A stretch of DNA of 64,000 bases from a virus. Lineage: Duplodnaviria; Heunggongvirae; Uroviricota; Caudoviricetes. The notes beneath the pieces are model-generated. The model searched no databases. It saw only the letters and a program-made list of their open reading frames with translations, and had not been told where the DNA came from. Below are positions 10,218 through 61,856 of this stretch, in pieces. Positions within the stretch are counted from its first letter, which is position 1; each line of letters begins with the position of its first letter. Where the stretch lies: positions 1 to 64,000 of the IMG/VR virus record IMGVR_UViG_3300043451_000039; one strand, given 5' to 3'. Position numbers and translations under genes: made by a program.

Positions 10218-10346
10218 TTACATCTCTACATAATCTTCTTTACCAACACCACACTCTGGGCATTCAAAGGTATCTGGAAGTTCTTCCCATTTACCTTCAG
10301 TGACTTCATCGTGGACGTGGCCACAAACAACGCATACGTAATCCAT
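10218..10346 (-). CDS. Rubredoxin (42 aa; two CxxC pairs)
   Basis: Manual translation: MDYVCVVCGHVHDEVTEGKWEELPDTFECPECGVGKEDYVEM. Start overlaps the upstream stop as TAATG. Missing from the ORF track because it is under 60 aa. Confidence 0.7.
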   Translation of the reverse strand: MDYVCVVCGHVHDEVTEGKWEELPDTFECPECGVGKEDYVEM

Positions 10347-10795
10347 TATAAGTTCTCCAATGTTTGTTGATATGCTTGAGCATGACGCTTCTCTACTTTA
10401 GCGAGAGCAGCAAAACGCTTTTCTGCTTTAGCCAAAACTTGAGCAAATTGTTCAGCGTGTTCTTTAGATTCAGCAATCTGATCAGCAAATTCTGAACGAG
10501 CCAAAGGATTCTGTTCCAACTCTGCATCAGTTTTAAACTTTGGATACATTGTAGTAAACTCATAAGTCTCACCTTCAATTGCTTTCTGTAGGCATTCCTT
10601 AGTGGATGGCTTACCGATTAGCAACTCAAGATGACCCCACGCATGTTTGATCTCTTGATCAGCAGTATGTTCGAAATGTTTTGCAACATCTTCGAAACCT
10701 TCTTCACGAGCGATCATAGCGAAATATCGATATTTGATATGAGCCATTGATTCGCCAGCCAATGCACTCTCAAGATTTTGTAATGTTACAGACAT
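10346..10795 (-). CDS. Rubrerythrin-family (ferritin-like di-iron) protein
   Basis: 149 aa with two E...ExxH-type di-iron half-sites (ESMAHIKY...EIKHAWGH; a second pair lies C-terminal). Immediately followed by a separate rubredoxin gene. Confidence 0.7.
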   Translation of the reverse strand: MSVTLQNLESALAGESMAHIKYRYFAMIAREEGFEDVAKHFEHTADQEIKHAWGHLELLIGKPSTKECLQKAIEGETYEFTTMYPKFKTDAELEQNPLARSEFADQIAESKEHAEQFAQVLAKAEKRFAALAKVEKRHAQAYQQTLENL

Positions 10796-10884
10796 AATTT
10801 CTCACTTTGTTTTATTATGTGGGTTTGGTGGAACCTTTCCGTTCACCCAATCCCAATCGTCATCTGTCATTGGAATCCATTGGT

Positions 10885-11049
10885 TCATACCATGCTCCCT
10901 CTTCGAAGGTACGCATAATACTCACGCTCCAATTGCTCCACATGAAGCGGAGTTTGTGGGTTGTGGGCTAAAATGAATTCCTCTAGTGTTGTAGTTCTAT
11001 CACGCAATACATTACCAATTAAGGATTTAAGTGCGGATAGAAATTTCAT
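10885..11049 (-). CDS. Small ORF (54 aa) coupled by ATGA to the hsp20 stop; a 28-aa ORF follows it before the rubrerythrin gene
   Basis: Manual translation gives MKFLSALKSLIGNVLRDRTTTLEEFILAHNPQTPLHVEQLEREYYAYLRRGSMV, with start-stop overlap with hsp20. Weak support. Confidence 0.25.
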   Translation of the reverse strand: MKFLSALKSLIGNVLRDRTTTLEEFILAHNPQTPLHVEQLEREYYAYLRRGSMV

Positions 11050-11531
11050 AGGTCTTCTTCAGTTAGATACTGTTTACCTTTACCAGTCTTAACTGGAACT
11101 TTCTTTGCTTTCTTTTCTTCTGGCACCAATTGATCAAGAGCGATCTTTAGAACACCATTGAAAAGTTCAGCATCCTTAACTTCATACTGATCACCGATAG
11201 CCCACGCACGAGTGAACGCACGATTAGAGATACCTTTGAATAAGAAGTTTTCTTCTGGTTCTTTGGATTCAGCGTTACCCTTAACGATCAACTTACCACC
11301 ATCGATAGTGATGTCGATTTCGTTTTGAGCGAAGCCAGCTACAGCGATTTCGATCGTGTAAGTGTTTCCGTTCTTACGAACATTAAATGGAGGGTAGTTA
11401 GGGATATCTTTAGTCAAGTCGTCATGCAATTGCTGCATGCGTTTGAATTGGTCATCAAAGCCTACGAATACTTTATCGAAGTCCTTGAAAACATCTTGGC
11501 TAAAAAATGCTGGAATGAATGATTTTGTCAT
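11046..11531 (-). CDS. Small heat-shock protein (Hsp20/alpha-crystallin family)
   Basis: 161 aa with an alpha-crystallin-domain-like core (YTIEIAVAGFAQNEIDITIDGGKLIVKG...) and a basic C-terminal tail. Confidence 0.75.
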   Translation of the reverse strand: MTKSFIPAFFSQDVFKDFDKVFVGFDDQFKRMQQLHDDLTKDIPNYPPFNVRKNGNTYTIEIAVAGFAQNEIDITIDGGKLIVKGNAESKEPEENFLFKGISNRAFTRAWAIGDQYEVKDAELFNGVLKIALDQLVPEEKKAKKVPVKTGKGKQYLTEEDL

Positions 11532-14108: not shown

Positions 14109-14674
14109 AAAATAAACTCCATAATATTTGTCTTTGACATTTGATTATCAAAGATTTGACCAAGTGGTCTCAACTCATCATAATTTAAATCAATATGAGC
14201 ATGAGTCTTTTTATCTTCAACTCTTGCGTCAAATGATTTCTGTTTTTCTAGAATCAGATCTTTAACCTTTTGAACATTAACTGGGTCATGAACAAATACA
14301 ACATGAACAGGATATGTGCTGTCATCGCTATCAAACAAAGAAAAGATAAAGGCATCTGCTTTGAATGTCTTTTCTAAAGACTTTGACATATCAATCTGGT
14401 ATTTGCTACCTCTGATATTATAGTCAAGAGTCTTCTTTCTTTTCTTTGCTTTGGTTGACTTCTGCTCAATGTATGTTAAGTTTAGTTCTTCACAAGCACC
14501 ATCAGCCCCATATCTACCAGCCAACTTATAGATTGTTGGATAATGAGTTTTAAGGTAATGGAATGTTAAGACTTCACGCCAAGCATAATTATCAAAAGGA
14601 TTATAATTGTATTCTTTCTTGAAGGCATCAATTGCCTCCAAGATATGAATTAGATCCTTTACTTCTTTTGACAT
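14105..14674 (-). CDS. Hypothetical protein (189 aa) inserted between gene 45 and gene 44
   Basis: ORF in track with 4-nt overlaps to both neighbours. No GIY-YIG or HNH motif seen. A weak D...E.K pattern (GADGACEE...IEQK) might indicate a PD-(D/E)xK fold. Confidence 0.45.
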   Translation of the reverse strand: MSKEVKDLIHILEAIDAFKKEYNYNPFDNYAWREVLTFHYLKTHYPTIYKLAGRYGADGACEELNLTYIEQKSTKAKKRKKTLDYNIRGSKYQIDMSKSLEKTFKADAFIFSLFDSDDSTYPVHVVFVHDPVNVQKVKDLILEKQKSFDARVEDKKTHAHIDLNYDELRPLGQIFDNQMSKTNIMEFIL

Positions 14675-15330
14675 TAGAAGTCGAAAGAAGAATCTGCTTC
14701 AACTGCTACGTAATAAACCAAGTCACCATTGCCTTGGAAGCGAGAGATTTTCTTAGAAGAAACACTCACAGTATAGTCACCTGGAATCATCTTCAAGTTT
14801 TCAACCTTTAGATGAACAGTAAACTTCTTGTCAGTCTCACCAACTGGCTCTTGGAAAGTATTACCAGTAGCATTCTTTTTATCACCAACAACTGCGACAA
14901 CCTTAGAACCATCACCAACGATAGTCAAGTCAGAAGCACGAAGAACACCAGCAGTCTTACGAATCATATCAAGCATGCTTGCTGTAAGTTTGAATTCGAT
15001 TTCTGCTTCAGGGAATGTAATTGCTTTTTGTGGAGCAGTCAATACACTTGCTTCTGCGGCAAAGTATTTAATGCTACGATCGCCTTGTTTGATAGTAACA
15101 AATTTCTCGCTGAAGTCCAACTCTGGATCTTCGAAGATTGACATTGCGCCCAAGAACTCATTGAGGTCATAGATACCGAAGTCAGGGAAGGTTTCAGTAA
15201 CAGTTGCGTCAGCCATTACATTCTTTTGAGCAGAGATAGTGGCAAGTTTGTTACCAGACTTCAGCAAAAGATTGCTGTTAATCCCAGCAAAGTTTTTGAT
15301 TAGACCGATGGTTTCTTTACTTAGTTTCAT
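14674..15330 (-). CDS. 45: Sliding clamp gp45
   Basis: MKLSKETIGLIKNFAGINSNLLLKSG matches the T4 gp45 N-terminus MKLSKDTTALLKNFATINSGIMLKSG. Length and C-terminal ...VAVEADSSFDF also match. Confidence 0.9.
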   Translation of the reverse strand: MKLSKETIGLIKNFAGINSNLLLKSGNKLATISAQKNVMADATVTETFPDFGIYDLNEFLGAMSIFEDPELDFSEKFVTIKQGDRSIKYFAAEASVLTAPQKAITFPEAEIEFKLTASMLDMIRKTAGVLRASDLTIVGDGSKVVAVVGDKKNATGNTFQEPVGETDKKFTVHLKVENLKMIPGDYTVSVSSKKISRFQGNGDLVYYVAVEADSSFDF

Positions 15331-15372: not shown

Positions 15373-15401
15373 ATTATACCCCAAAACGGGACACAAAGCA
15401 A
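15373..15401 (-). promoter_or_regulatory. Sigma70-type early promoter upstream of gene 45: -35 TTGCTT, 17 bp, GGGG, -10 TATAAT
   Basis: Reverse complement reads TTGCTTtgtgtcccgttttggggTATAAT. Confidence 0.45.
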
Positions 15402-15409
15402 ATTTATTT

Positions 15410-15925
15410 TTACCAATCACTACTTGGTCCAGAGTCTGACGAACTAGAACTATAAGAATCGCTTGAAGAAGAACTCCAAGAACTAGAACTATCCATAGAA
15501 CTAGAGATAGACTTGCGACTATCTGGGTCATCAAACCCCCAAGAAGATTCTGATTTAGAAACAGAAACGCTTGGTTCGGATTTGTGTGAGATTGAATTGA
15601 TAACATTATCAATCAACATACCTGTTAACATACCATTCACAAAACCATCATCAGTACTTTGAGCTGGTGATGTTGAATAGGAAGGGGCATTTGTTACAGT
15701 AGTTTTCGCAGGTTTAGATGCAGTTGAAGTAGCAGGTTTTACTACTGGCGCTTTCATTTTTTGGTGCATCTCTTCACGCCATTTACGAGTGGCTTCAAGT
15801 TGAAGTTTTCTCTCAGCCATTTCTTCTTCGTCTTTCTTTTGTCGCCATGTAATTATTTTGGAAAGGGTGAACCAGAAGGCACCCACCAAAAGTAGAATTA
15901 CTACGATTGCGAGGATGTCTTCCAT
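15410..15925 (-). CDS. Membrane protein with N-terminal TM helix, coiled/charged middle and a Ser-rich C-terminal tail
   Basis: 171 aa: ILAIVVILLLVGAFWFTL TM segment, a KR/E-rich stretch, and C-terminal SSSMDSSSSWSSSSSDSYSSSSSDSGPSSDW. Immediately downstream of the SPFH gene. Confidence 0.5.
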   Translation of the reverse strand: MEDILAIVVILLLVGAFWFTLSKIITWRQKKDEEEMAERKLQLEATRKWREEMHQKMKAPVVKPATSTASKPAKTTVTNAPSYSTSPAQSTDDGFVNGMLTGMLIDNVINSISHKSEPSVSVSKSESSWGFDDPDSRKSISSSMDSSSSWSSSSSDSYSSSSSDSGPSSDW

Positions 15926-15926
15926 G

Positions 15927-16733
15927 TTACTTACCTTGGTTTACAGAAACAACTGGCTGAGCACCTTGGCCAATGATCAGAGTTTGTCCCTTGAAGTTTG
16001 AGATAGCCTTTGGCATTTCACGGAGATACTCAGCTTCAGATTCAGCTTTCATCAAAGGAATCATAGTAGGGTTGGCTTGCATAGATTCATTACGCTTCTT
16101 AGCAGTAGCAACCTTAATCTCTTCAGTCTTCAGTTCGTTCTTCGCTTTAACCAATTCGTTGGCAGAAGCAACGATAGAATCAGCAGGAACAATATTACGA
16201 ACCAAGACTTGAGTAATAGTGATAGTTCCATCCAGCTTCTCATCAGCCAAAGTTTTTGTCACAGTTTCTTTTACGAACTGCTCAATCGCTTGACGATTGT
16301 CGCCCATATCCAATGCTTCGTATTGACGAGCAGCTTTGTAAATAGCATTACGAGTAGCATTGAAGATGTAGTTATACATCAGGTAAGTATCGCCATTGTG
16401 ATTAGCGTGGAACGATTTGTTCTTTGTATTATACAACTCAGCAACTTGCGATTGGTTGATGTTGTAAATAAGGATAGCGTCAAAGTCTTTCATTGTGCTA
16501 TTATCTTTGGCTTGAGGGGTCAAGTCATCGATCTTCACCGCAACTTCTTTAACAGGGAAAGTCATAACCGAACCAACGAGGGTTTGGTTAAATGAACCTG
16601 GCAACAGTTCCTCATTCTTAACCTGTTTGTCAAAGCCGACTCGCAAGCCAACTTCACCAGTTTCAATTCGAGTACAGCCAGTAGCGAGAGCCAACAGACC
16701 AACGATCATACCAATTTTCAAAAACGATTTCAT
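15927..16733 (-). CDS. SPFH/band-7 (stomatin/prohibitin-like) lipoprotein
   Basis: 268 aa with a lipoprotein signal (LLALATGC lipobox) followed by a band-7-like core and a C-terminal coiled region. Confidence 0.7.
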   Translation of the reverse strand: MKSFLKIGMIVGLLALATGCTRIETGEVGLRVGFDKQVKNEELLPGSFNQTLVGSVMTFPVKEVAVKIDDLTPQAKDNSTMKDFDAILIYNINQSQVAELYNTKNKSFHANHNGDTYLMYNYIFNATRNAIYKAARQYEALDMGDNRQAIEQFVKETVTKTLADEKLDGTITITQVLVRNIVPADSIVASANELVKAKNELKTEEIKVATAKKRNESMQANPTMIPLMKAESEAEYLREMPKAISNFKGQTLIIGQGAQPVVSVNQGK

Positions 16734-16742
16734 AATATTTCC

Positions 16743-16919
16743 TTAGAATAAAACAACGATACCAATAACGATAGCAAAAGCAATGATTGCTGTCACCAAA
16801 CTATACAGACCAACCTTGATCATGTTCAGCTTCAGTGACATTGGTGAATGCCAGAAGAAACTGATTCCAACAAATACGATTGCCCATACAGCAAGGAATG
16901 CTAGAATTCCTCTAATCAT
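16743..16919 (-). CDS. Small two-TM membrane protein (58 aa) immediately upstream of the SPFH gene
   Basis: Manual translation: MIRGILAFLAVWAIVFVGISFFWHSPMSLKLNMIKVGLYSLVTAIIAFAIVIGIVVLF. AATGA overlap with the upstream stop, and an AAGGA RBS 6 nt upstream of the SPFH ATG. Confidence 0.4.
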   Translation of the reverse strand: MIRGILAFLAVWAIVFVGISFFWHSPMSLKLNMIKVGLYSLVTAIIAFAIVIGIVVLF

Positions 16920-17296
16920 TTCTTCTTACCTTTCCAAGCAACGAATTCTTTTACAAGTTCTTCATGCTTAGCAGCAGAGCAATACAAAGTCCATTCACGA
17001 ACAATGTCTTTATAGGTTACACGCTGTTCACCATTCTCACCTTCAGTGTGAACTGCTGGCTCAGATAACATATAACCAAGAATTGTTTTTGGAATACCAT
17101 TATCCCAAACACGCTCAATTGAAAACACTTTCATTGCGTCCCAGTCAACAGCAAATGAAGCAGTTTCCATTTCACCAACAAGACGCTTCTGATATGCGTC
17201 ATTGGCAAACTTCAGTCGTTCATTTTCTTTCTTCAAATCTTCCAATTCCACTTTTAGATTTGAATGAGTAATAGGATTAATACCGAACAAAAACAT
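16916..17296 (-). CDS. Hypothetical protein (126 aa)
   Basis: ORF in track; first gene of the SPFH operon block. Confidence 0.45.
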   Translation of the reverse strand: MFLFGINPITHSNLKVELEDLKKENERLKFANDAYQKRLVGEMETASFAVDWDAMKVFSIERVWDNGIPKTILGYMLSEPAVHTEGENGEQRVTYKDIVREWTLYCSAAKHEELVKEFVAWKGKKK

Positions 17297-17631
17297 TATA
17301 CATCCTTAGAATATTTTACATCATGTTCATACAAGAACATCAAACAACACATGGCGTGAGCCAAGTGATTCTTACCAGTCTCAGGGTCATTCTGCTCACC
17401 CTCTTTCCATGCCCAAAGATGACGCTGCATCGCATCAAAATATCTACGCTTCGAGTCAGGAACAAATTTCCAATTATCTGGTTCATATTTTTCAGCACCG
17501 AAAGTCAGAATCTCTGCTGTCGCTCTCAATGCTAGTGGCGGTAGCAAACCATACTGTGGCTTACCACCATCAAACTTTCGCCCACCTGTTGTGGCGATTT
17601 GTGACGCTTTAACTTCTTCTGGAGTTGCCAT
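17296..17631 (-). CDS. Putative dATP/dGTP pyrophosphohydrolase-like (phage NTP-PPase) domain protein
   Basis: 111 aa. The pattern KFDGGKPQYGLLPP...LTFGAEKYEPDNW...HLAHAMCCLMFL resembles the phage dATP/dGTP diphosphohydrolase N-terminal domain family. Motif recognition only. Confidence 0.35.
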   Translation of the reverse strand: MATPEEVKASQIATTGGRKFDGGKPQYGLLPPLALRATAEILTFGAEKYEPDNWKFVPDSKRRYFDAMQRHLWAWKEGEQNDPETGKNHLAHAMCCLMFLYEHDVKYSKDV

Positions 17632-17742
17632 TAATCCTCCGCCGATTCAGCTTTGTTTTTAAAACATAGGATTGCTCTGTAGATCAAACCAATCATAACT
17701 GCTAAAACAATTACCGCAATAAATTCAAACATATAATCTCCA

Positions 17743-17782
17743 TAACAAAAATGAATCTGGATACTTTCCAATATCCAGATTC
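17743..17782 (-). terminator. Rho-independent terminator (minus strand) downstream of the HTH gene
   Basis: 11-bp perfect inverted repeat GAATCTGGATA/TATCCAGATTC with an 8-nt loop, followed on the minus strand by ATTTTTGTT. Confidence 0.45.
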
Positions 17783-17792
17783 AAGTGCTCAA

Positions 17793-18053: not shown

Positions 18054-18086
18054 TTATTAGTAACTCCATAGTATAACCATCATATG

Positions 18087-18123
18087 AAAAAAACCAAAGA
18101 GGAGATGGCAGTAACCTCTTTGG
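18087..18123 (-). terminator. Rho-independent terminator (minus strand)
   Basis: 9-bp stem CCAAAGAGG/CCTCTTTGG with a 12-nt loop, followed on the minus strand by TTTTTTT. Confidence 0.5.
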
Positions 18124-18136
18124 TCGAAAGACGTGA

Positions 18137-18625: not shown

Positions 18626-18654
18626 ATTATACAACAAATATTGCTGCAAGTCAA
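18626..18654 (-). promoter_or_regulatory. Sigma70-type early promoter: -35 TTGACT, 17 bp, -10 TATAAT
   Basis: Reverse complement reads TTGACTtgcagcaatatttgttgTATAAT. Confidence 0.5.
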
Positions 18655-18656
18655 GT

Positions 18657-19856
18657 TTAAAATGGAACTTCGTCAGAAGGTGTTGCAGCGACTTGCTCGG
18701 GAGCAGGTGCTACCTCTGGCGCAGGGTTAGCAACCATCTCATACAATTTCAAGAACGCATCTTTAGTTGCAGAGTCAAAACGATTGCAGCAAAGTTCCAC
18801 TGCTTTCTCACGCTTCTTGAAGATAGCGTAAGCACGAACAATGTGGATCATACGACGAGTCGTAATAGTTTCATCCACACCACCATCGGCGAAAGTGCGA
18901 CGAATTGAATCAGCCCACTTGACCAATGTTTCAGCGAACTCTTTATCGGGGCAACCGAAAGAGTCCATAAGATTTTCAATAATCTTACCTTCAACCTTTG
19001 CAGAAGGATAGTCCTGTTCAAAGGTTACGGCAAATCGTTCCAAGAATGCTTCGTTCAATACGTTGGTACCGATATAGCGACCATCGTCACTACCCTTACC
19101 CTTGGTGTTAGCAGTGGCAAAGATATTGAAACCTTCAGCGGGAACAATCATCTCATTCTTGAGTTTGAAGTAATAAGGTTTACCCTCGAGGATTGGTTGC
19201 AAGCAGAGCAAAGTGTTTGCTGAGCCAGCGTCAATCTCGTCAAGCAACAAAGTGCAACCAGTACGCATAGCGATAAGAACTGGACCCTCAACGATTTGGA
19301 CGTTGCCGTCTTCGAGGGTTTTGGTACCGATGAGTTGTTCTTCATCAGTCATCATGTTCAAGTTAACACGAATCAATGGACGTTTGTGTTTGGCACAAAT
19401 CTGTTCGACCATAGTTGATTTACCGTTACCAGTTGGACCACTGATATAGGCTGGGTAGAAAATCTTTGACTTGATAATATTTTCAAGATCAGAGTAGTTG
19501 CCGAAAGGCACGAAATTTGGATCCTTCTTTGGGATCAGCGACTGAACATCCGTATAATCCACTTGGAATGATTCCTCAACTTTAGGTTTCAATGCGGCAT
19601 TACCAACAGTGGCATTACCTCGACCATCGATCGCATACAAGCCACGACCGACTTTGGTTGTCATCAACCACTTGGGTGATGTTTTGGTGCCAAGAGCACG
19701 CATAGTTTCTAGCAACTGAGCATTTTGAACGACTCCCTCGGTTTTAACATCGGGGAACAACTCAAAGAGTTTACCTTCAAATTCAGCTTGAAACGCACTG
19801 TCAATTTTAGCCATCATTTTCTCCATAACAAAACTACTTTCAATCAATTTATACAA
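18657..19856 (-). CDS. cobS: CobS-like AAA+ ATPase (MoxR/cobaltochelatase small-subunit family); the real start is probably Met14/15 at about 19817
   Basis: Walker A GPTGNGKST, Walker B LLLDEID, sensor/arginine-finger region, size about 390 aa as in phage CobS homologues. A GGAG RBS sits 5 nt before Met14, and the predicted TSS of the promoter at 19859-19887 lies downstream of the first ATG. Confidence 0.7.
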   Translation of the reverse strand: MYKLIESSFVMEKMMAKIDSAFQAEFEGKLFELFPDVKTEGVVQNAQLLETMRALGTKTSPKWLMTTKVGRGLYAIDGRGNATVGNAALKPKVEESFQVDYTDVQSLIPKKDPNFVPFGNYSDLENIIKSKIFYPAYISGPTGNGKSTMVEQICAKHKRPLIRVNLNMMTDEEQLIGTKTLEDGNVQIVEGPVLIAMRTGCTLLLDEIDAGSANTLLCLQPILEGKPYYFKLKNEMIVPAEGFNIFATANTKGKGSDDGRYIGTNVLNEAFLERFAVTFEQDYPSAKVEGKIIENLMDSFGCPDKEFAETLVKWADSIRRTFADGGVDETITTRRMIHIVRAYAIFKKREKAVELCCNRFDSATKDAFLKLYEMVANPAPEVAPAPEQVAATPSDEVPF

Positions 19857-23576: not shown

Positions 23577-24971
23577 TTACTTGTTGCTGTTCTTGCGAAC
23601 TTCTTCGAAAGTAATTTCGTTGATAAGTTTGCCATCACGGAAAACTTCTTGCAGAACCTCAGTCCAACCAAGACCTTTGTCAGTCCAGCCAGTGGGCTGA
23701 GTAACAGCAGAGCGATGCTCACCACCAGATTCCCAAAGGGTTACACGACCAGCCTTTGACTTCTTGCCAGAATCAGTAACAGGATCTTTCTGAACATCAA
23801 CCCAAACTCCGTTGATCTTAGCAGAAGAACACTTCATTGCGAACTTCTGAGTATCACGATCAACAATTTGAAGAAGAGCACCGCCCATACCGAAAGCAAT
23901 GTTATCAGCTGACCACCCATAGGCTTGGAAGCCACCGAGAATCATGCGGATAGTGTGTTCATTAACACCATCACCTTGGATCAAACGAACATTGTTCAGT
24001 ACTTTGAATCCTTTGGCGTTGGTTGTATAACCGAATTTCTCTCCAAGGATTTGGACGAGTTTGCGGCATACGGTGTCAGGATCACCAGAGTCGGGACGGA
24101 TAACCACAGTCGCACCAGAGACGATAACTTGCTCCTTGAGTTCTTCACCCCAGAGTTTGCTTGCTGCATTGAAGATGTCATACGAATCACTCACAACTGC
24201 CAAGATAGAACCTTCACGACCGAATTGCTTCAGCATATTCTCATATGCCTTCACTTCATTGTCTCGCCCCCAGCTTGTGATTGTGCTGTGCTCTGCGGCT
24301 GGGATTGAGAAGCCTGCGATACCAGCGTTATAATACTCACGAGCATAGAGCAAGCCAGTAATAGTATCAGTGCCCATGAAGTTAACCAAGTGGGACGCAC
24401 CCCCAACTCCAGCAGACTCAAGGCTAGATACACCACGAGCACCAAAATCGTGTAACTTAAAATCGATAGTAGAAGGGTCACCAGTTTTCTCCAAGTAGTC
24501 AAGAATAATTTTCTTGATAGATTTAGATTGTGTTGCTACAGTTGTAGGATACCATACAGCACGAAGCAAAGCAGTTTCCAAATAAGTTGTCAACCAGAAA
24601 CATTCTGGATCAGTGTTTTCAATTGTCGCCAGAACATTCTTAACAGGCACCACTGTGCCTTCAGGAACAGCACGAATAACAACTGGAAGGAATCCGTTAT
24701 GTTTGGTAAGGATATACTCCCAACCAGCACGGTTGAATGGTTCTCCGTGTGCAGTGAGAATTTCATCTGCGATATCGATATCGGCTTGGGTAATTGGTTC
24801 AAGTAAATACTCCTTGATGAACGCTTGAAGACCGAAGAATACTGTTTCATCATAGCGTCCGCCACGAGATTCAATATATGAATATACACCAGTTGTACCA
24901 GCTGGATATTGTTTGAACATGCTAACTTTGTAGCTGTCTGTGTTCAACAGAATGTTTTTTGCGAGTTTCAT
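23577..24971 (-). CDS. nadV: Nicotinamide phosphoribosyltransferase (NAMPT/NadV)
   Basis: 464 aa with NAMPT-family length and motifs (NTDSYK...GTDT...DSYD). Adjacent to a NadM-Nudix gene as in KVP40. Confidence 0.85.
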   Translation of the reverse strand: MKLAKNILLNTDSYKVSMFKQYPAGTTGVYSYIESRGGRYDETVFFGLQAFIKEYLLEPITQADIDIADEILTAHGEPFNRAGWEYILTKHNGFLPVVIRAVPEGTVVPVKNVLATIENTDPECFWLTTYLETALLRAVWYPTTVATQSKSIKKIILDYLEKTGDPSTIDFKLHDFGARGVSSLESAGVGGASHLVNFMGTDTITGLLYAREYYNAGIAGFSIPAAEHSTITSWGRDNEVKAYENMLKQFGREGSILAVVSDSYDIFNAASKLWGEELKEQVIVSGATVVIRPDSGDPDTVCRKLVQILGEKFGYTTNAKGFKVLNNVRLIQGDGVNEHTIRMILGGFQAYGWSADNIAFGMGGALLQIVDRDTQKFAMKCSSAKINGVWVDVQKDPVTDSGKKSKAGRVTLWESGGEHRSAVTQPTGWTDKGLGWTEVLQEVFRDGKLINEITFEEVRKNSNK

Positions 24972-24988
24972 GATTATCTCCTAATCGA

Positions 24989-25963
24989 TTAAAGTTTTGC
25001 GAAAGCAGGCATTGGCATAACACCTGTTACTTTTGAAATGATGTCCTTATGGTCATCATACATTTCAATGCTGTTAAGTGCTTCAGTAAGTGGCACCCAC
25101 TTGCACATAGCAGCATCGTCAGCACCATTAGCACGTGGCAATGAGTAGTCAGGGTTTGGGCTGATACGCATATACACTGCCATGGTGTTTCTTGGAATAC
25201 CAAATGAACGATTTGGATTATCGAACAATTCAGTCTTCACAATCGAGCCACGTAGAACCTTCTCAGGAACACGGACATTTGTTTCCTCGATTAACTCTCG
25301 GATTGCGCAGTCGAGAAATGTTTCTCGCTGATTTTTAAAACCTCCAGGAACTGCCCACGCATCTTTTCCTGGGCTGAACTTTCTTTGAATGAGAAGGACA
25401 TGCCCCTGACATTCAAGGACTGCATCTGCGCAGTTGAAGTTGAGGGTTTCTGGGAAGGGATAGTCTTTAAATAATTTCTTTTCATTTTGATAAAATTGAT
25501 AATCACCGAGCACAGTCTCAGGCATATCAGGATCTTTTAAATCAAACATGCGTTGACGAATTTGTGTGGCATTCATATTATATTGCGCTTCAATACTTCT
25601 AAACTCTAGTTCTGGGAACCACTTGAGGTAATCATTACCTTCTTTCATGTGTCCAAATAGAATCGGTGAACCCATATTGAAGTGTTCAATTGTGGCGCGA
25701 ACATCAGACATCCATTGAGTGTCTGAATATTTGTAATCGTTTAGTGGGATAATTTCGTAGTTGGTTATCCGAGCATTATGCAGCTTCAGGTGAAGCATTT
25801 GCTTACGTTCATCAAACGTCCAAGGGTTTTTAATACTACGACAGACGTTGGAAGAACCAACTAGGATGTACAGTTTTTGTACTTGGGATGCAGCCAAACC
25901 CAGTGCGTGGATATGACCTTGATGTGCGGGCTGGAATCGCCCAATAAAAATACCAGTTCTCAT
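24989..25963 (-). CDS. natV: Bifunctional NMN adenylyltransferase / Nudix ADP-ribose pyrophosphatase (NadM-Nudix, NatV)
   Basis: N-terminal nucleotidyltransferase motif GRFQPAHQGH (HxGH-type) and a C-terminal Nudix box (GGFKNQRETFLDCAIRELIEETNV). Confidence 0.85.
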   Translation of the reverse strand: MRTGIFIGRFQPAHQGHIHALGLAASQVQKLYILVGSSNVCRSIKNPWTFDERKQMLHLKLHNARITNYEIIPLNDYKYSDTQWMSDVRATIEHFNMGSPILFGHMKEGNDYLKWFPELEFRSIEAQYNMNATQIRQRMFDLKDPDMPETVLGDYQFYQNEKKLFKDYPFPETLNFNCADAVLECQGHVLLIQRKFSPGKDAWAVPGGFKNQRETFLDCAIRELIEETNVRVPEKVLRGSIVKTELFDNPNRSFGIPRNTMAVYMRISPNPDYSLPRANGADDAAMCKWVPLTEALNSIEMYDDHKDIISKVTGVMPMPAFAKL

Positions 25964-60908: not shown

Positions 60909-61856
60909 TTAGTGTAGTTGAATCTTCTCAACTAGACCTGGAGTGAAGTAGTCAGCAAACTTAGCGTAAACTGGAGCAGTAACTTCTTTGAAGCGTGCTT
61001 CTTGTTCAGCAGTCATCTTAACAACTTCAACACCCTCAGCCTCGCATTGAGCCAAGATGTTTGGAATATCAGCAACAGACTCGCGACGCTCTTGACGAGC
61101 AGCGTTGAATGCAGCAGTAGACAAGATTTCTTGAGTCTCAGCATCGAATTGCTTGAAGAAGTCTTGGTTAACGATGATAGATGTCAAGAACAAGCTGTGG
61201 GCTGTATCGTTAACAACTTTGAAACTCTTGTGTTGGTCTAGTGGGAACACACGAACGTAAGTAGATTCACCAGCTTCGATCAAACCTGCATCAGCTGCAG
61301 CATTCATTTCTTCCAAAGCGATGTGTTCTTTTGGTTCTGCGCCGAGCAACTTGAAAGTCTCAACAGCAACTGGAGAACGAGAAGTGCGAACTGTGCGCCC
61401 TTGCCATGCTTCTACAGTGTCAGCCTTAAAGTTAGCTGGAACAACACGGTATCCACCAGAGTAAGTAAAAGACATAGCATGAGTATTAGAATTCTTAGCA
61501 ACACCAGCCAATAACTCAGTACCGATAGAACCTTCTAGAACTGCGTCAGCGTGAGCATGGTCACGGAACAAGAATGGAAGATCTAACGCATGTAGGTCTT
61601 TGTTATAGTCAGCCAACCAAGTAGTATAGATATGGCTCATTTCGATAGCGCCAGTATCAACCAACTTCATTAAAGCATCTTTGGTGATCTTTTGACCGCC
61701 ATTGTATTTGTTGGTATAGTCAGTTAAAGAAAGAACCTCGATGTCAAACGCACCATTAGTTTTCTCATTAACTTCTTTAGCGAATCTCTCCGCTACTTTC
61801 AAAAACAAACCGATAGGTTCGTGGGCAATAACCCATTTTACATGTTTAGTAGTCAT
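60909..61856 (-). CDS. TRAP-transporter solute-binding-protein (DctP family) homologue lacking a signal peptide
   Basis: 315 aa. KWVIAHEP..., FAKEVNEKTNGAFDIEV, LDLPFLFRDHAHADAVLEGSIGTELL and the C-terminal VYAKFADYFTPGLVEKIQ are DctP-family hallmarks. The N-terminus MTTKHVKWVIAHE has no hydrophobic leader. Confidence 0.7.
   Translation of the reverse strand: MTTKHVKWVIAHEPIGLFLKVAERFAKEVNEKTNGAFDIEVLSLTDYTNKYNGGQKITKDALMKLVDTGAIEMSHIYTTWLADYNKDLHALDLPFLFRDHAHADAVLEGSIGTELLAGVAKNSNTHAMSFTYSGGYRVVPANFKADTVEAWQGRTVRTSRSPVAVETFKLLGAEPKEHIALEEMNAAADAGLIEAGESTYVRVFPLDQHKSFKVVNDTAHSLFLTSIIVNQDFFKQFDAETQEILSTAAFNAARQERRESVADIPNILAQCEAEGVEVVKMTAEQEARFKEVTAPVYAKFADYFTPGLVEKIQLH

Follow-up and report, generated by a model that had tools for sequence, protein, structure and literature searches.

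A predicted lipid-anchored SPFH protein and a 58-residue two-helix membrane protein form a two-gene cassette in a T4-like phage genome and its relatives

Why do large lytic phages carry a protein of the SPFH family, and which of the genes around it belong with it? The question is raised by a block of four open reading frames (ORFs) in a 64,000-nt stretch of DNA from an uncultured tailed phage (Caudoviricetes; positions 1 to 64,000 of IMG/VR record IMGVR_UViG_3300043451_000039), referred to below as the window. The block encodes proteins of 126, 58, 268 and 171 aa: orf126, orf58, the SPFH protein and orf171. T4-like phages were already recorded in 2006 as having SPFH ORFs (PMC1524935), and many viral Band-7 proteins exist, so the domain call is not new. 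Phage SPFH proteins were called functionally unclear as late as 2026 (PMC7760394, PMC13239085), and no functional study of one was found in the literature searched. A preliminary description of the locus, made from the DNA letters and a list of ORFs, took all four genes for one SPFH lipoprotein operon. The analysis described here leads to a smaller unit. It consists of orf58 and the SPFH gene, a cassette of two genes inserted into the backbone immediately ahead of gp45.

The 268-aa protein matches the Pfam Band_7 profile (PF01145) at E=4.4e-17 over profile positions 2-174 of 176. The score of 63.1 bits lies above the curated gathering score of 23.6, and the assignment to the SPFH/Band-7 family made in the preliminary description is thereby confirmed. 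It is also matched by PHROG 200 (labelled ‘lipoprotein’, the phage SPFH family) at E=2.8e-28 over residues 1-235, and has more than 4,400 database relatives, all of which contain PF01145. A signal peptide with a lipobox is followed by an alpha/beta SPFH core at residues ~61-183, two long predicted helices at ~186-245 and a hydrophobic C-terminal strand (QTLIIGQG). Two AlphaFold2 (AF2) models have mean confidence (pLDDT) values of 61 and 66, the deeper alignment used for the second having raised the value only slightly; the core reaches 75-94, and the predicted helices, 186-220 and 224-245, ~55-69. Foldseek comparison with the Protein Data Bank (PDB) gives 46 matches at E<=1e-3, each of them an SPFH protein or vault. 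Prohibitin, HflK/C, stomatin, erlin, flotillin and vault are found with probability 1.0 and E-values down to 5e-8. Isolated stomatin SPFH domains superimpose on the AF2 model (pLDDT 61-66) with TM(target) of 0.70-0.80 and an rmsd of 3-4 Å, and alignments to full-length subunits of cage-forming SPFH proteins cover 190-236 columns, running on through the helical region. Sequence searches of the PDB, by protein and by profile query, matched no SPFH structure. The defence-system search with PADLOC returned only a weak off-target Csx1 match for the SPFH protein (E=8e-4) and nothing for the other three ORFs.

The N-terminus, MKSFLKIGMIVGLLALATGC-TRIETGEVG, has the form of a signal peptide with a lipobox (...LALATGC). 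A pattern of the PROSITE PS51257 type (basic n-region, hydrophobic h-region, [LIVMFWSTAG]2-[LIVMFYSTAGCQ]-[AGS]-C) fits 46 of 48 distinct viral N-termini, with the cysteine present in all 48, and 72 of 77 cellular ones. Cys20 is invariant in both viral-family alignments, A1 and A7. The LALATGC lipobox pointed out in the preliminary description therefore holds as a predicted lipidation site whose cysteine is conserved across the viral family. As the SPFH domain begins two residues past this cysteine, it would rest directly on the membrane surface of the exported side. The cyanophage homologs of S-CREM1 and B23 have, in place of the lipobox, an uncleaved-looking hydrophobic anchor without the cysteine, and the feature that is conserved would therefore be membrane attachment on the exported side.

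The gene directly upstream, orf58, was followed in a forward set of 80 IMG/VR loci whose SPFH proteins are 63-81% identical. It precedes the SPFH gene in 78 of them, and in the remaining two, which a contig end interrupts, its C-terminal part is still visible. The small membrane ORF, whose absence from related phages would have told against the preliminary description, is thus kept beside the SPFH gene in every sufficiently sequenced locus. Its family holds 61 distinct sequences, every one 58 aa long and free of indels, with the consensus MIR.wL.F...GI..fR..tGKEKW.LTK...YS...S.LA......IV(V/I)LF. Purifying selection is evident: the median dN/dS is 0.38 and the ratio is below 1 in 99.6% of 508 pairs. 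Between orf58 and the SPFH gene lie 8-12 nt in 63 of the 78 partner-carrying loci; in the remaining 15 the distance is 19 nt or 94-98 nt. A reverse search with the partner sequence as query returned 74 loci, with the SPFH gene immediately downstream in 70. One of the four exceptions is truncated by its contig, two belong to a single lineage that has lost the SPFH gene, and one (L249) has an intact partner alone. In the lineage with the loss (L268 and L269, positions 1501-1614) the SPFH gene is deleted and the partner is cut to 37 codons, beside ClpP; these two loci and L249 are decay states of the cassette. orf58 is a coding gene under selection, constant in length and adjacent to the SPFH gene across some 150 loci. 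A natural fusion of the two genes, which would speak for an interaction, was also considered and rejected. The long entry P0001 (337 aa, from a JGI metagenome) is an SPFH homolog in which ~70 residues are internally repeated in tandem (AKNKSFHA...EKLDGTI twice), which is either an assembly artefact or a genuine duplication, and other long entries have over-extended starts.

What kind of protein is orf58? Two transmembrane (TM) helices and a 14-residue loop make up the whole of it, the hydrophobic segments lying at residues 1-25 and 33-58, and the two-TM character given to it in the preliminary description stands. The further suggestion that it could be NfeD-like does not. NfeD proteins combine a membrane region with a soluble OB-fold, through which they bind the coiled coil of the SPFH protein; long forms have a ClpP-type domain in addition, and NfeD is believed to aid the oligomerisation of its SPFH protein. 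Of 36 sequences of the orf58 family, none matches the NfeD models PF01957 and PF25145 even at E<=1, and the OB-fold cannot fit, since the two helices and the loop fill all 58 residues. No Pfam, PHROG, NCBIfam or PADLOC family was found for orf58. The arrangement of the genes does resemble that of SPFH-NfeD operons such as QmcA-YbbJ, FloA-NfeD and PH1511-PH1510, in which a small membrane protein gene likewise lies ahead, co-oriented and translationally close. The differences are that orf58 lacks both the OB-fold (PF01957) and the ClpP-type domain, having only two TM helices and a loop, and that the phage SPFH domain is predicted to be exported whereas theirs is cytoplasmic. The loop of the partner carries on average ~3.9 Lys/Arg with a net charge of +2.4, against +0.95 for the N-terminal tail, and these charges favour placing the loop in the cytoplasm and the two termini at the periplasmic leaflet.

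The size and two-TM layout of orf58 are also those of a class-II holin, and single members of its family give holin matches at chance level (Phage_holin_3_1 at E=0.074, Holin_SPP1 at E=0.28). Because SPFH proteins corral membrane proteins, the assembly and the hairpin could sequester or organise a holin/antiholin or spanin and so delay or synchronise lysis, or orf58 could itself be holin- or antiholin-like; an Rz-like spanin gene lies ~2.4 kb upstream in phage SJ3. The holin matches are, however, not significant, and orf58 ends inside a TM helix, whereas holins typically have a charged tail at the C-terminus. In the window and most loci the module is surrounded by replication genes and adjoins no endolysin gene, and the cellular homologs described below are not lysis genes. 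A role in lysis timing is accordingly improbable.

Beyond the close relatives, the SPFH gene is preceded in six of seven distant phage lineages by a small ORF with two TM segments and a basic loop (Table 1); Acinetobacter phage Ab15 is the exception to this layout. The small ORFs of Salmonella phage SJ3 and Erwinia phage phiEa2809 are unannotated and are probably missed genes. The known SPFH lipoproteins of distant phages resemble that of the window in length (~260-275 aa), in the lipobox cysteine right before the SPFH domain and in the predicted helical region and C-terminal strand. They differ in being only 23-30% identical to it, in having upstream ORFs of 53-90 aa and in their genomic position. 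The small ORFs are positional and architectural analogues only. The cultured phage closest to the window is Synechococcus phage BUCT-ZZ01 (40% identity for SPFH, 51% for gp45). The affiliation with KVP40-like Vibrio phages implied in the preliminary description has to be dropped, as megablast against GenBank phages gave no match at the DNA level and there is no Vibrio phage among 193 tblastn matches.

Taken together, the cassette may be described as an operon of an SPFH protein plus a membrane partner, lipid-anchored, facing the periplasm and distinct from SPFH-NfeD operons. The reading we favour, at somewhat less than an even chance, is a periplasm-facing SPFH assembly in which orf58 is a subunit. 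The SPFH protein would be exported, lipid-modified at Cys20 and held on the periplasm-facing membrane surface, the same side as HflK/C. Solved SPFH assemblies are rings or cages (PMC12048511), and like all of these the phage protein would probably oligomerise through its helical region to fence off a patch of membrane. The orf58 hairpin, presumably made in step with the SPFH protein given the 9-nt gap between the genes, would be the integral-membrane subunit, a part filled in HflK/C by their own N-terminal TM helices and in the cytoplasm-facing systems by the membrane part of NfeD. The hairpin would probably turn its basic loop to the cytoplasm and have its two ends at the periplasmic leaflet, close to the lipid anchor.

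HflK/C, a periplasm-facing SPFH cage around FtsH (PMC12048511), is the natural comparison. With E. coli HflK and HflC the phage protein shares the SPFH fold and a predicted helical extension (Foldseek probability 1.0), the predicted periplasmic side and, in a minority of relatives, adjoining genes for a YccA-family protein or a protease. It differs in its lipobox cysteine, which replaces the N-terminal TM helix as anchor, in being a single gene where HflK/HflC are a heteromeric pair, in its 10-17% identity to them and in a sorting signal that may direct it to the outer membrane.

Several observations weigh against the assembly so drawn. The AF2 models are of moderate confidence only, with poor definition of residues 19-60 and of the C-terminal tail. 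Affinity to HflK/C at the level of sequence is lacking in the searches made: NCBIfam gave nothing at E<=0.1, its HflK and HflC models included, and the PDB sequence searches gave no match. Homology between the small ORFs of distant phages and the 58-aa family is not demonstrable (hhalign probabilities of 0.3%, 1% and 31%). The two proteins of the cassette, of which orf58 evolves much faster (mean pairwise identity of 44% vs 78% for SPFH), show only weak, though significant, co-divergence (Mantel r=0.26, equalled in 0 of 2000 permutations). In L249 the intact partner (positions 1501-1677) has no SPFH gene and is followed directly by a ‘GGYYLFW’ membrane protein.

The cellular homologs point the same way. 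A scan of one genome per species found SPFH lipoproteins that are 46-61% identical over the full length and share the mature N-terminus C-TRIETGEVG (L090-L169; for example L094, Bdellovibrio sp. HCB290). They are carried on complete chromosomes of several Bdellovibrio strains, Bacteriovorax and many freshwater Burkholderiales, among them Polaromonas (L117, Polaromonas aquatica), Rhodoferax, Aquabacterium, Massilia, Duganella, Pseudoduganella (L158) and Roseateles, and are labelled at source ‘SPFH domain-containing protein’ or with an automatic HflC COG. Their GC content is host-like (0.43-0.70) and their neighbours are ordinary and variable, which rules out a prophage origin. In contrast to the phage genes, those of Bdellovibrio and Burkholderiales are chromosomal and stand alone. 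Bdellovibrio and most Burkholderiales homologs lack the small partner, which Roseateles/Mitsuaria and Parvibium have. The SPFH protein can thus function alone, and the partner, typical of the phage versions, is not required by the family as a whole. The cellular genes may hint at the host range of this phage group or at the origin of the gene. Three metagenome-assembled genomes labelled Spirochaetota, Leptospiraceae and Saccharibacteria (L090, L091 and L155) contain contigs with phage-type SPFH genes in bacterial bins. Their SPFH proteins are 83% (L090, L091) and 46% (L155) identical to that of the window, that of L155 is directly preceded by a 58-aa partner, and all three are likely to be mis-binned phage contigs.

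These stand-alone genes, host-like in GC, ordinary in their neighbours and usually without a partner, together with the weak co-divergence and the solitary partner of L249, fit a host-derived passenger: the phage SPFH protein would supplement or replace a housekeeping SPFH lipoprotein of the host, and orf58 would hitch-hike beside it without physical interaction. The pairing itself speaks against this. The near-absolute adjacency in both searches, the fixed length of 58 aa, the spacing of 8-12 nt in most loci, the joint loss in L268 and L269 and the finding of analogous small ORFs again in distant phage families argue for functional coupling over hitch-hiking, and we regard the passenger as distinctly unlikely.

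A further objection to the periplasm-facing assembly comes from the residues that follow the lipobox cysteine. Positions +2 and +3 are Thr-Arg in the window and Gly-Gly or Gly-Val in the homologs from enterobacterial Ackermannviridae, with no Asp at +2. Under the Lol sorting rule of E. coli, a lipoprotein without Asp at +2 goes to the outer membrane. The predicted destination would then lie away from the inner-membrane partner and from FtsH, which would favour a role in the envelope or in exclusion and leave the inner-membrane partner puzzling. A lipoprotein lattice, on the inner leaflet of the outer membrane or on the inner membrane, might mask or immobilise receptors or components of DNA entry and so block secondary infection or lysis from without, in the manner of lipoproteins such as T5 Llp and Cor. 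The predicted export of a lipoprotein by strictly lytic large phages agrees with superinfection exclusion, as do the sorting signal in enterobacterial hosts, the position of the gene in a non-structural, replication-side region of the genome and the label ‘superinfection exclusion’ on neighbouring genes in Ackermannviridae. That label, however, is an unverified annotation of a protein without a TM segment. There is no homology to known exclusion proteins, the sole PHROG match being the generic phrog_200; the close stand-alone cellular genes, which are not prophage genes, are hard to reconcile with a role against phage entry; and a site in the outer membrane would leave the conserved inner-membrane partner unexplained. 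Exclusion is therefore an unlikely function, if a less remote one than lysis timing. Both had been put forward in the preliminary description together with envelope remodelling, and all three roles are speculative. Least credible of all is a virion-associated protein, carried in or on the particle. SPFH proteins have been seen by mass spectrometry in purified particles of Vi01-like phage (3 peptides) and of an Erwinia jumbo phage, but the peptide counts are very low, contamination by membrane fragments is the likelier source of a lipoprotein that has a signal peptide, and the gene lies outside the structural module.

What might a periplasm-facing cage enclose? It might capture or shield inner-membrane proteins during infection, and an HflK/C-like effect on FtsH-type proteolysis could keep envelope and phage membrane proteins stable until lysis, although both steps are speculative. 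By analogy, membrane-protein quality control is the client we would name first, as a surmise that is doubtful at present. Proteostasis is preferred because of the precedent of HflK/C and FtsH and because YccA-family or ClpP genes adjoin the cassette in relatives; YccA is reported in PMC12048511, citing Kihara et al. 1998, to be a substrate of FtsH/HflKC that also interferes with it. This adjacency is confined to a minority (13 of 80 loci) and may be coincidental. A broader proposal, equally doubtful as a whole, is that diverse lytic phages (T4-like, Ackermannviridae, Schitoviridae and jumbo phages) share a two-component system for takeover of the host envelope. A lipid-anchored, periplasm-facing SPFH cage would act with an obligatory two-helix miniprotein of ~55-90 aa in place of NfeD, for example by caging FtsH-type quality control or by walling off entry sites, while the relatives in Bdellovibrio and Burkholderiales would work without the miniprotein.

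The genes that flank the pair vary. The preliminary description had the order of the four ORFs right, as well as the ATGA overlap between the stop of orf126 and the start of orf58, and all four lie on the minus strand (Table 1); the SPFH gene and orf171 are separated by 1 nt. Their union into one operon-like module cannot be upheld. Five related loci (L182-184, L186 and L188) have the upstream 111-aa gene, orf126 and gp45 without orf58 or the SPFH gene, and orf126 is therefore a backbone gene outside the module; its membership is ruled out by these loci. It matches no Pfam, PHROG or NCBIfam family. Some relatives read 111-aa gene, orf58, SPFH, gp45, with neither orf126 nor orf171.

The orf171 family follows the SPFH gene in only 13 of the 80 loci, in most with a gap of 1-2 nt. 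It adjoins SPFH in most of 11 further or overlapping loci, and a 35% identical relative occurs without SPFH in L194 and L195. As the preliminary description had it, orf171 is a TM protein with a serine-rich tail: it has one N-terminal TM segment, and Ser makes up 54% of its final 50 residues. An acidic N-terminal tail (MED) precedes the TM segment, which is followed by a basic, charged helix, the conserved elements DDGF..GML..IN and SSWGFDDxDSRKS and the Ser/Asp-rich tail ending in SDSGPSSDW. An invariant C-terminal ...SSDW and a repeated SSS[WY] pattern are seen in the family. The distribution of charge suggests an N-out/C-in topology, which would place the Ser-rich tail in the cytoplasm. A borderline Pfam match to eukaryotic SARAF (31.6 bits, cutoff 30.8), covering the TM segment and the Ser-rich tail, was judged compositional and homology was rejected.

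Elsewhere the slot after the SPFH gene is filled in other ways. In 11 loci gp45 follows directly. In 10 it is a two-TM ‘GG(H/Y)YxFW’ protein with an acidic tail, and in nine (L015, L020-L024, L048, L049 and L051) it is ClpP (E=6.9e-79). In four (L039, L040, L047 and L052) a membrane protein of the Bax1-I/YccA family of 231-232 aa follows after 10 nt (Pfam E=2.6e-55). The ‘GG(H/Y)YxFW’ family (L016-L018, L054, L057, L061, L062, L064, L081, L082 and L249) has two TM segments, its N-terminal motif, a conserved ‘FYRLGLTDNNRVAFSMGYSEITMN’ segment and an acidic ‘DDPDGGEPVPVPE’ tail; it often starts no more than 1 nt after SPFH and has no Pfam match. Given the variable slot and the dispensability of orf126 and orf171, the insertable unit is orf58 plus SPFH, with orf171 one of several optional genes.

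The window as a whole is a segment of a T4-like myovirus genome that encodes gp43, UvsX, gp44/62/45, gp46/47 and capsid, tail and terminase genes. The minus strand holds 71 of its 72 gene-sized ORFs and, given this, the more than 4,400 SPFH relatives and the purifying selection on orf58, the four ORFs are not a chance set. The 111-aa gene and a 33-aa TM ORF upstream of orf126 are packed as tightly as the block itself, and the 111-aa protein is 65-99% conserved in relatives. In four other minus-strand regions lie auxiliary genes for NAMPT (PF04095, E=5e-60), an NMN adenylyltransferase-Nudix fusion, rubrerythrin, Hsp20, a CobS/MoxR-like AAA_5 ATPase and a periplasmic solute-binding protein of the DctP type (TRAP transporter, E=2.5e-43).

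As to transcription, a sigma-70-like sequence ~0.9 kb upstream of the block and ~1.7 kb upstream of orf58 is, from its match to the consensus, a possible early promoter. Two terminator-like hairpins stand between it and the block, the stronger of them immediately upstream of the co-oriented series of 33-aa TM ORF, 111-aa gene, orf126, orf58, SPFH and orf171. A weak hairpin between orf171 and gp45 would probably terminate transcription inefficiently at best. The block contains no late promoter motif of the T4 type (TATAAATA), and Rfam and tRNA scans found nothing. In the preliminary description the block was driven from the early promoter side; early expression is plausible from its genomic position, if we assume that T4 gene order applies.

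Table 1. Location of the cassette, its neighbours and nearby signals in the window, and small ORFs ahead of SPFH genes in distant phages
Feature	Location	Strand	Remarks
orf58	16743-16919	-	Hairpin miniprotein of 58 aa with two TM helices; begins MIR..., has a basic loop and ends in ...IVVLF; partner conserved beside the SPFH gene
SPFH/Band-7 lipoprotein	15927-16733	-	268 aa; Cys20 codon 16674-16676
orf126	16916-17296	-	Upstream neighbour, co-transcribed; N-terminal coiled-coil-like region
orf171	15410-15925	-	Bitopic membrane protein, optional accessory; starts 1 nt past SPFH stop
gp45	14674-15330	-	Next gene after the block
111-aa protein	17296-17631	-	PF18909 dATP/dGTP diphosphohydrolase N-terminal domain alone, E=2.6e-35
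33-aa single-TM ORF (MFEFIAVIVLAVMIGLIYRAILCFKNKAESAED)	~17631-17732 (ATG near 17732)	-	TAATG overlap with the 111-aa gene
Sigma-70-like candidate promoter, TTGACT-17-TATAAT	18626-18654	-	11/12 consensus match only; sole strong one nearby
Terminator-like hairpin	~18085-18125	-	-16.3 kcal/mol
Strong terminator-like hairpin with T-run	17752-17783	-	14-bp stem, -20.9 kcal/mol, z=-5.4, 0/200 shuffles as stable
Weak hairpin, orf171/gp45 intergenic	15374-15396	-	-9.1 kcal/mol, z=-1.3
Auxiliary genes	23577-25963, 10346-11531, 60909-61856, 18657-19856	-	
Small ORF, Synechococcus phage BUCT-ZZ01			Kyanoviridae; 58 aa
Small ORF, Synechococcus phage S-CREM1			Kyanoviridae; 53 aa
Small ORF, Synechococcus phage B23			Kyanoviridae; 54 aa
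Small ORF, Salmonella phage SJ3 (NC_024122)	L003:2771-2989		Ackermannviridae (Kuttervirus); 72 aa, unannotated, overlaps SPFH start
Small ORF, Erwinia phage phiEa2809 (KP037007)	L088:1307-1501		Ackermannviridae; 64 aa, unannotated, overlaps/abuts SPFH start
Small ORF, Acinetobacter phage PhT2			Straboviridae; 90 aa
Small ORF, Acinetobacter phage XC38			Schitoviridae; 87 aa
Small ORF, Burkholderia jumbo phage BCSR5			Unclassified, 227 kb; 65 aa, tRNA gene between small ORF and SPFH

SPFH proteins are universal organisers of membranes whose cage architecture has been solved only recently and few of whose clients are known. In phages they have been annotated for some 20 years, and no mechanism has been proposed. 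Several elements of the present account seem not to have been described in the literature searched: a small two-TM protein as obligate partner, which reference genomes leave unannotated; the delimitation of a minimal cassette; and close cellular homologs that lack the partner. Should the SPFH protein prove merely a routine accessory gene, the annotations, with their missing small ORFs, and the earlier model of the gene block are still corrected. The strict pairing with a tiny and often unannotated membrane protein offers a minimal testable system of two genes and ~330 codons, for which culturable models of like layout exist in the Kuttervirus phages of Salmonella and E. coli (the group of Vi01, CBA120 and Det7) and the T4-like phages of Acinetobacter. 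Work on it could show by what means an SPFH scaffold is built on the periplasmic face when there is no NfeD, and what advantage a lytic phage draws from reorganising the envelope of its host.

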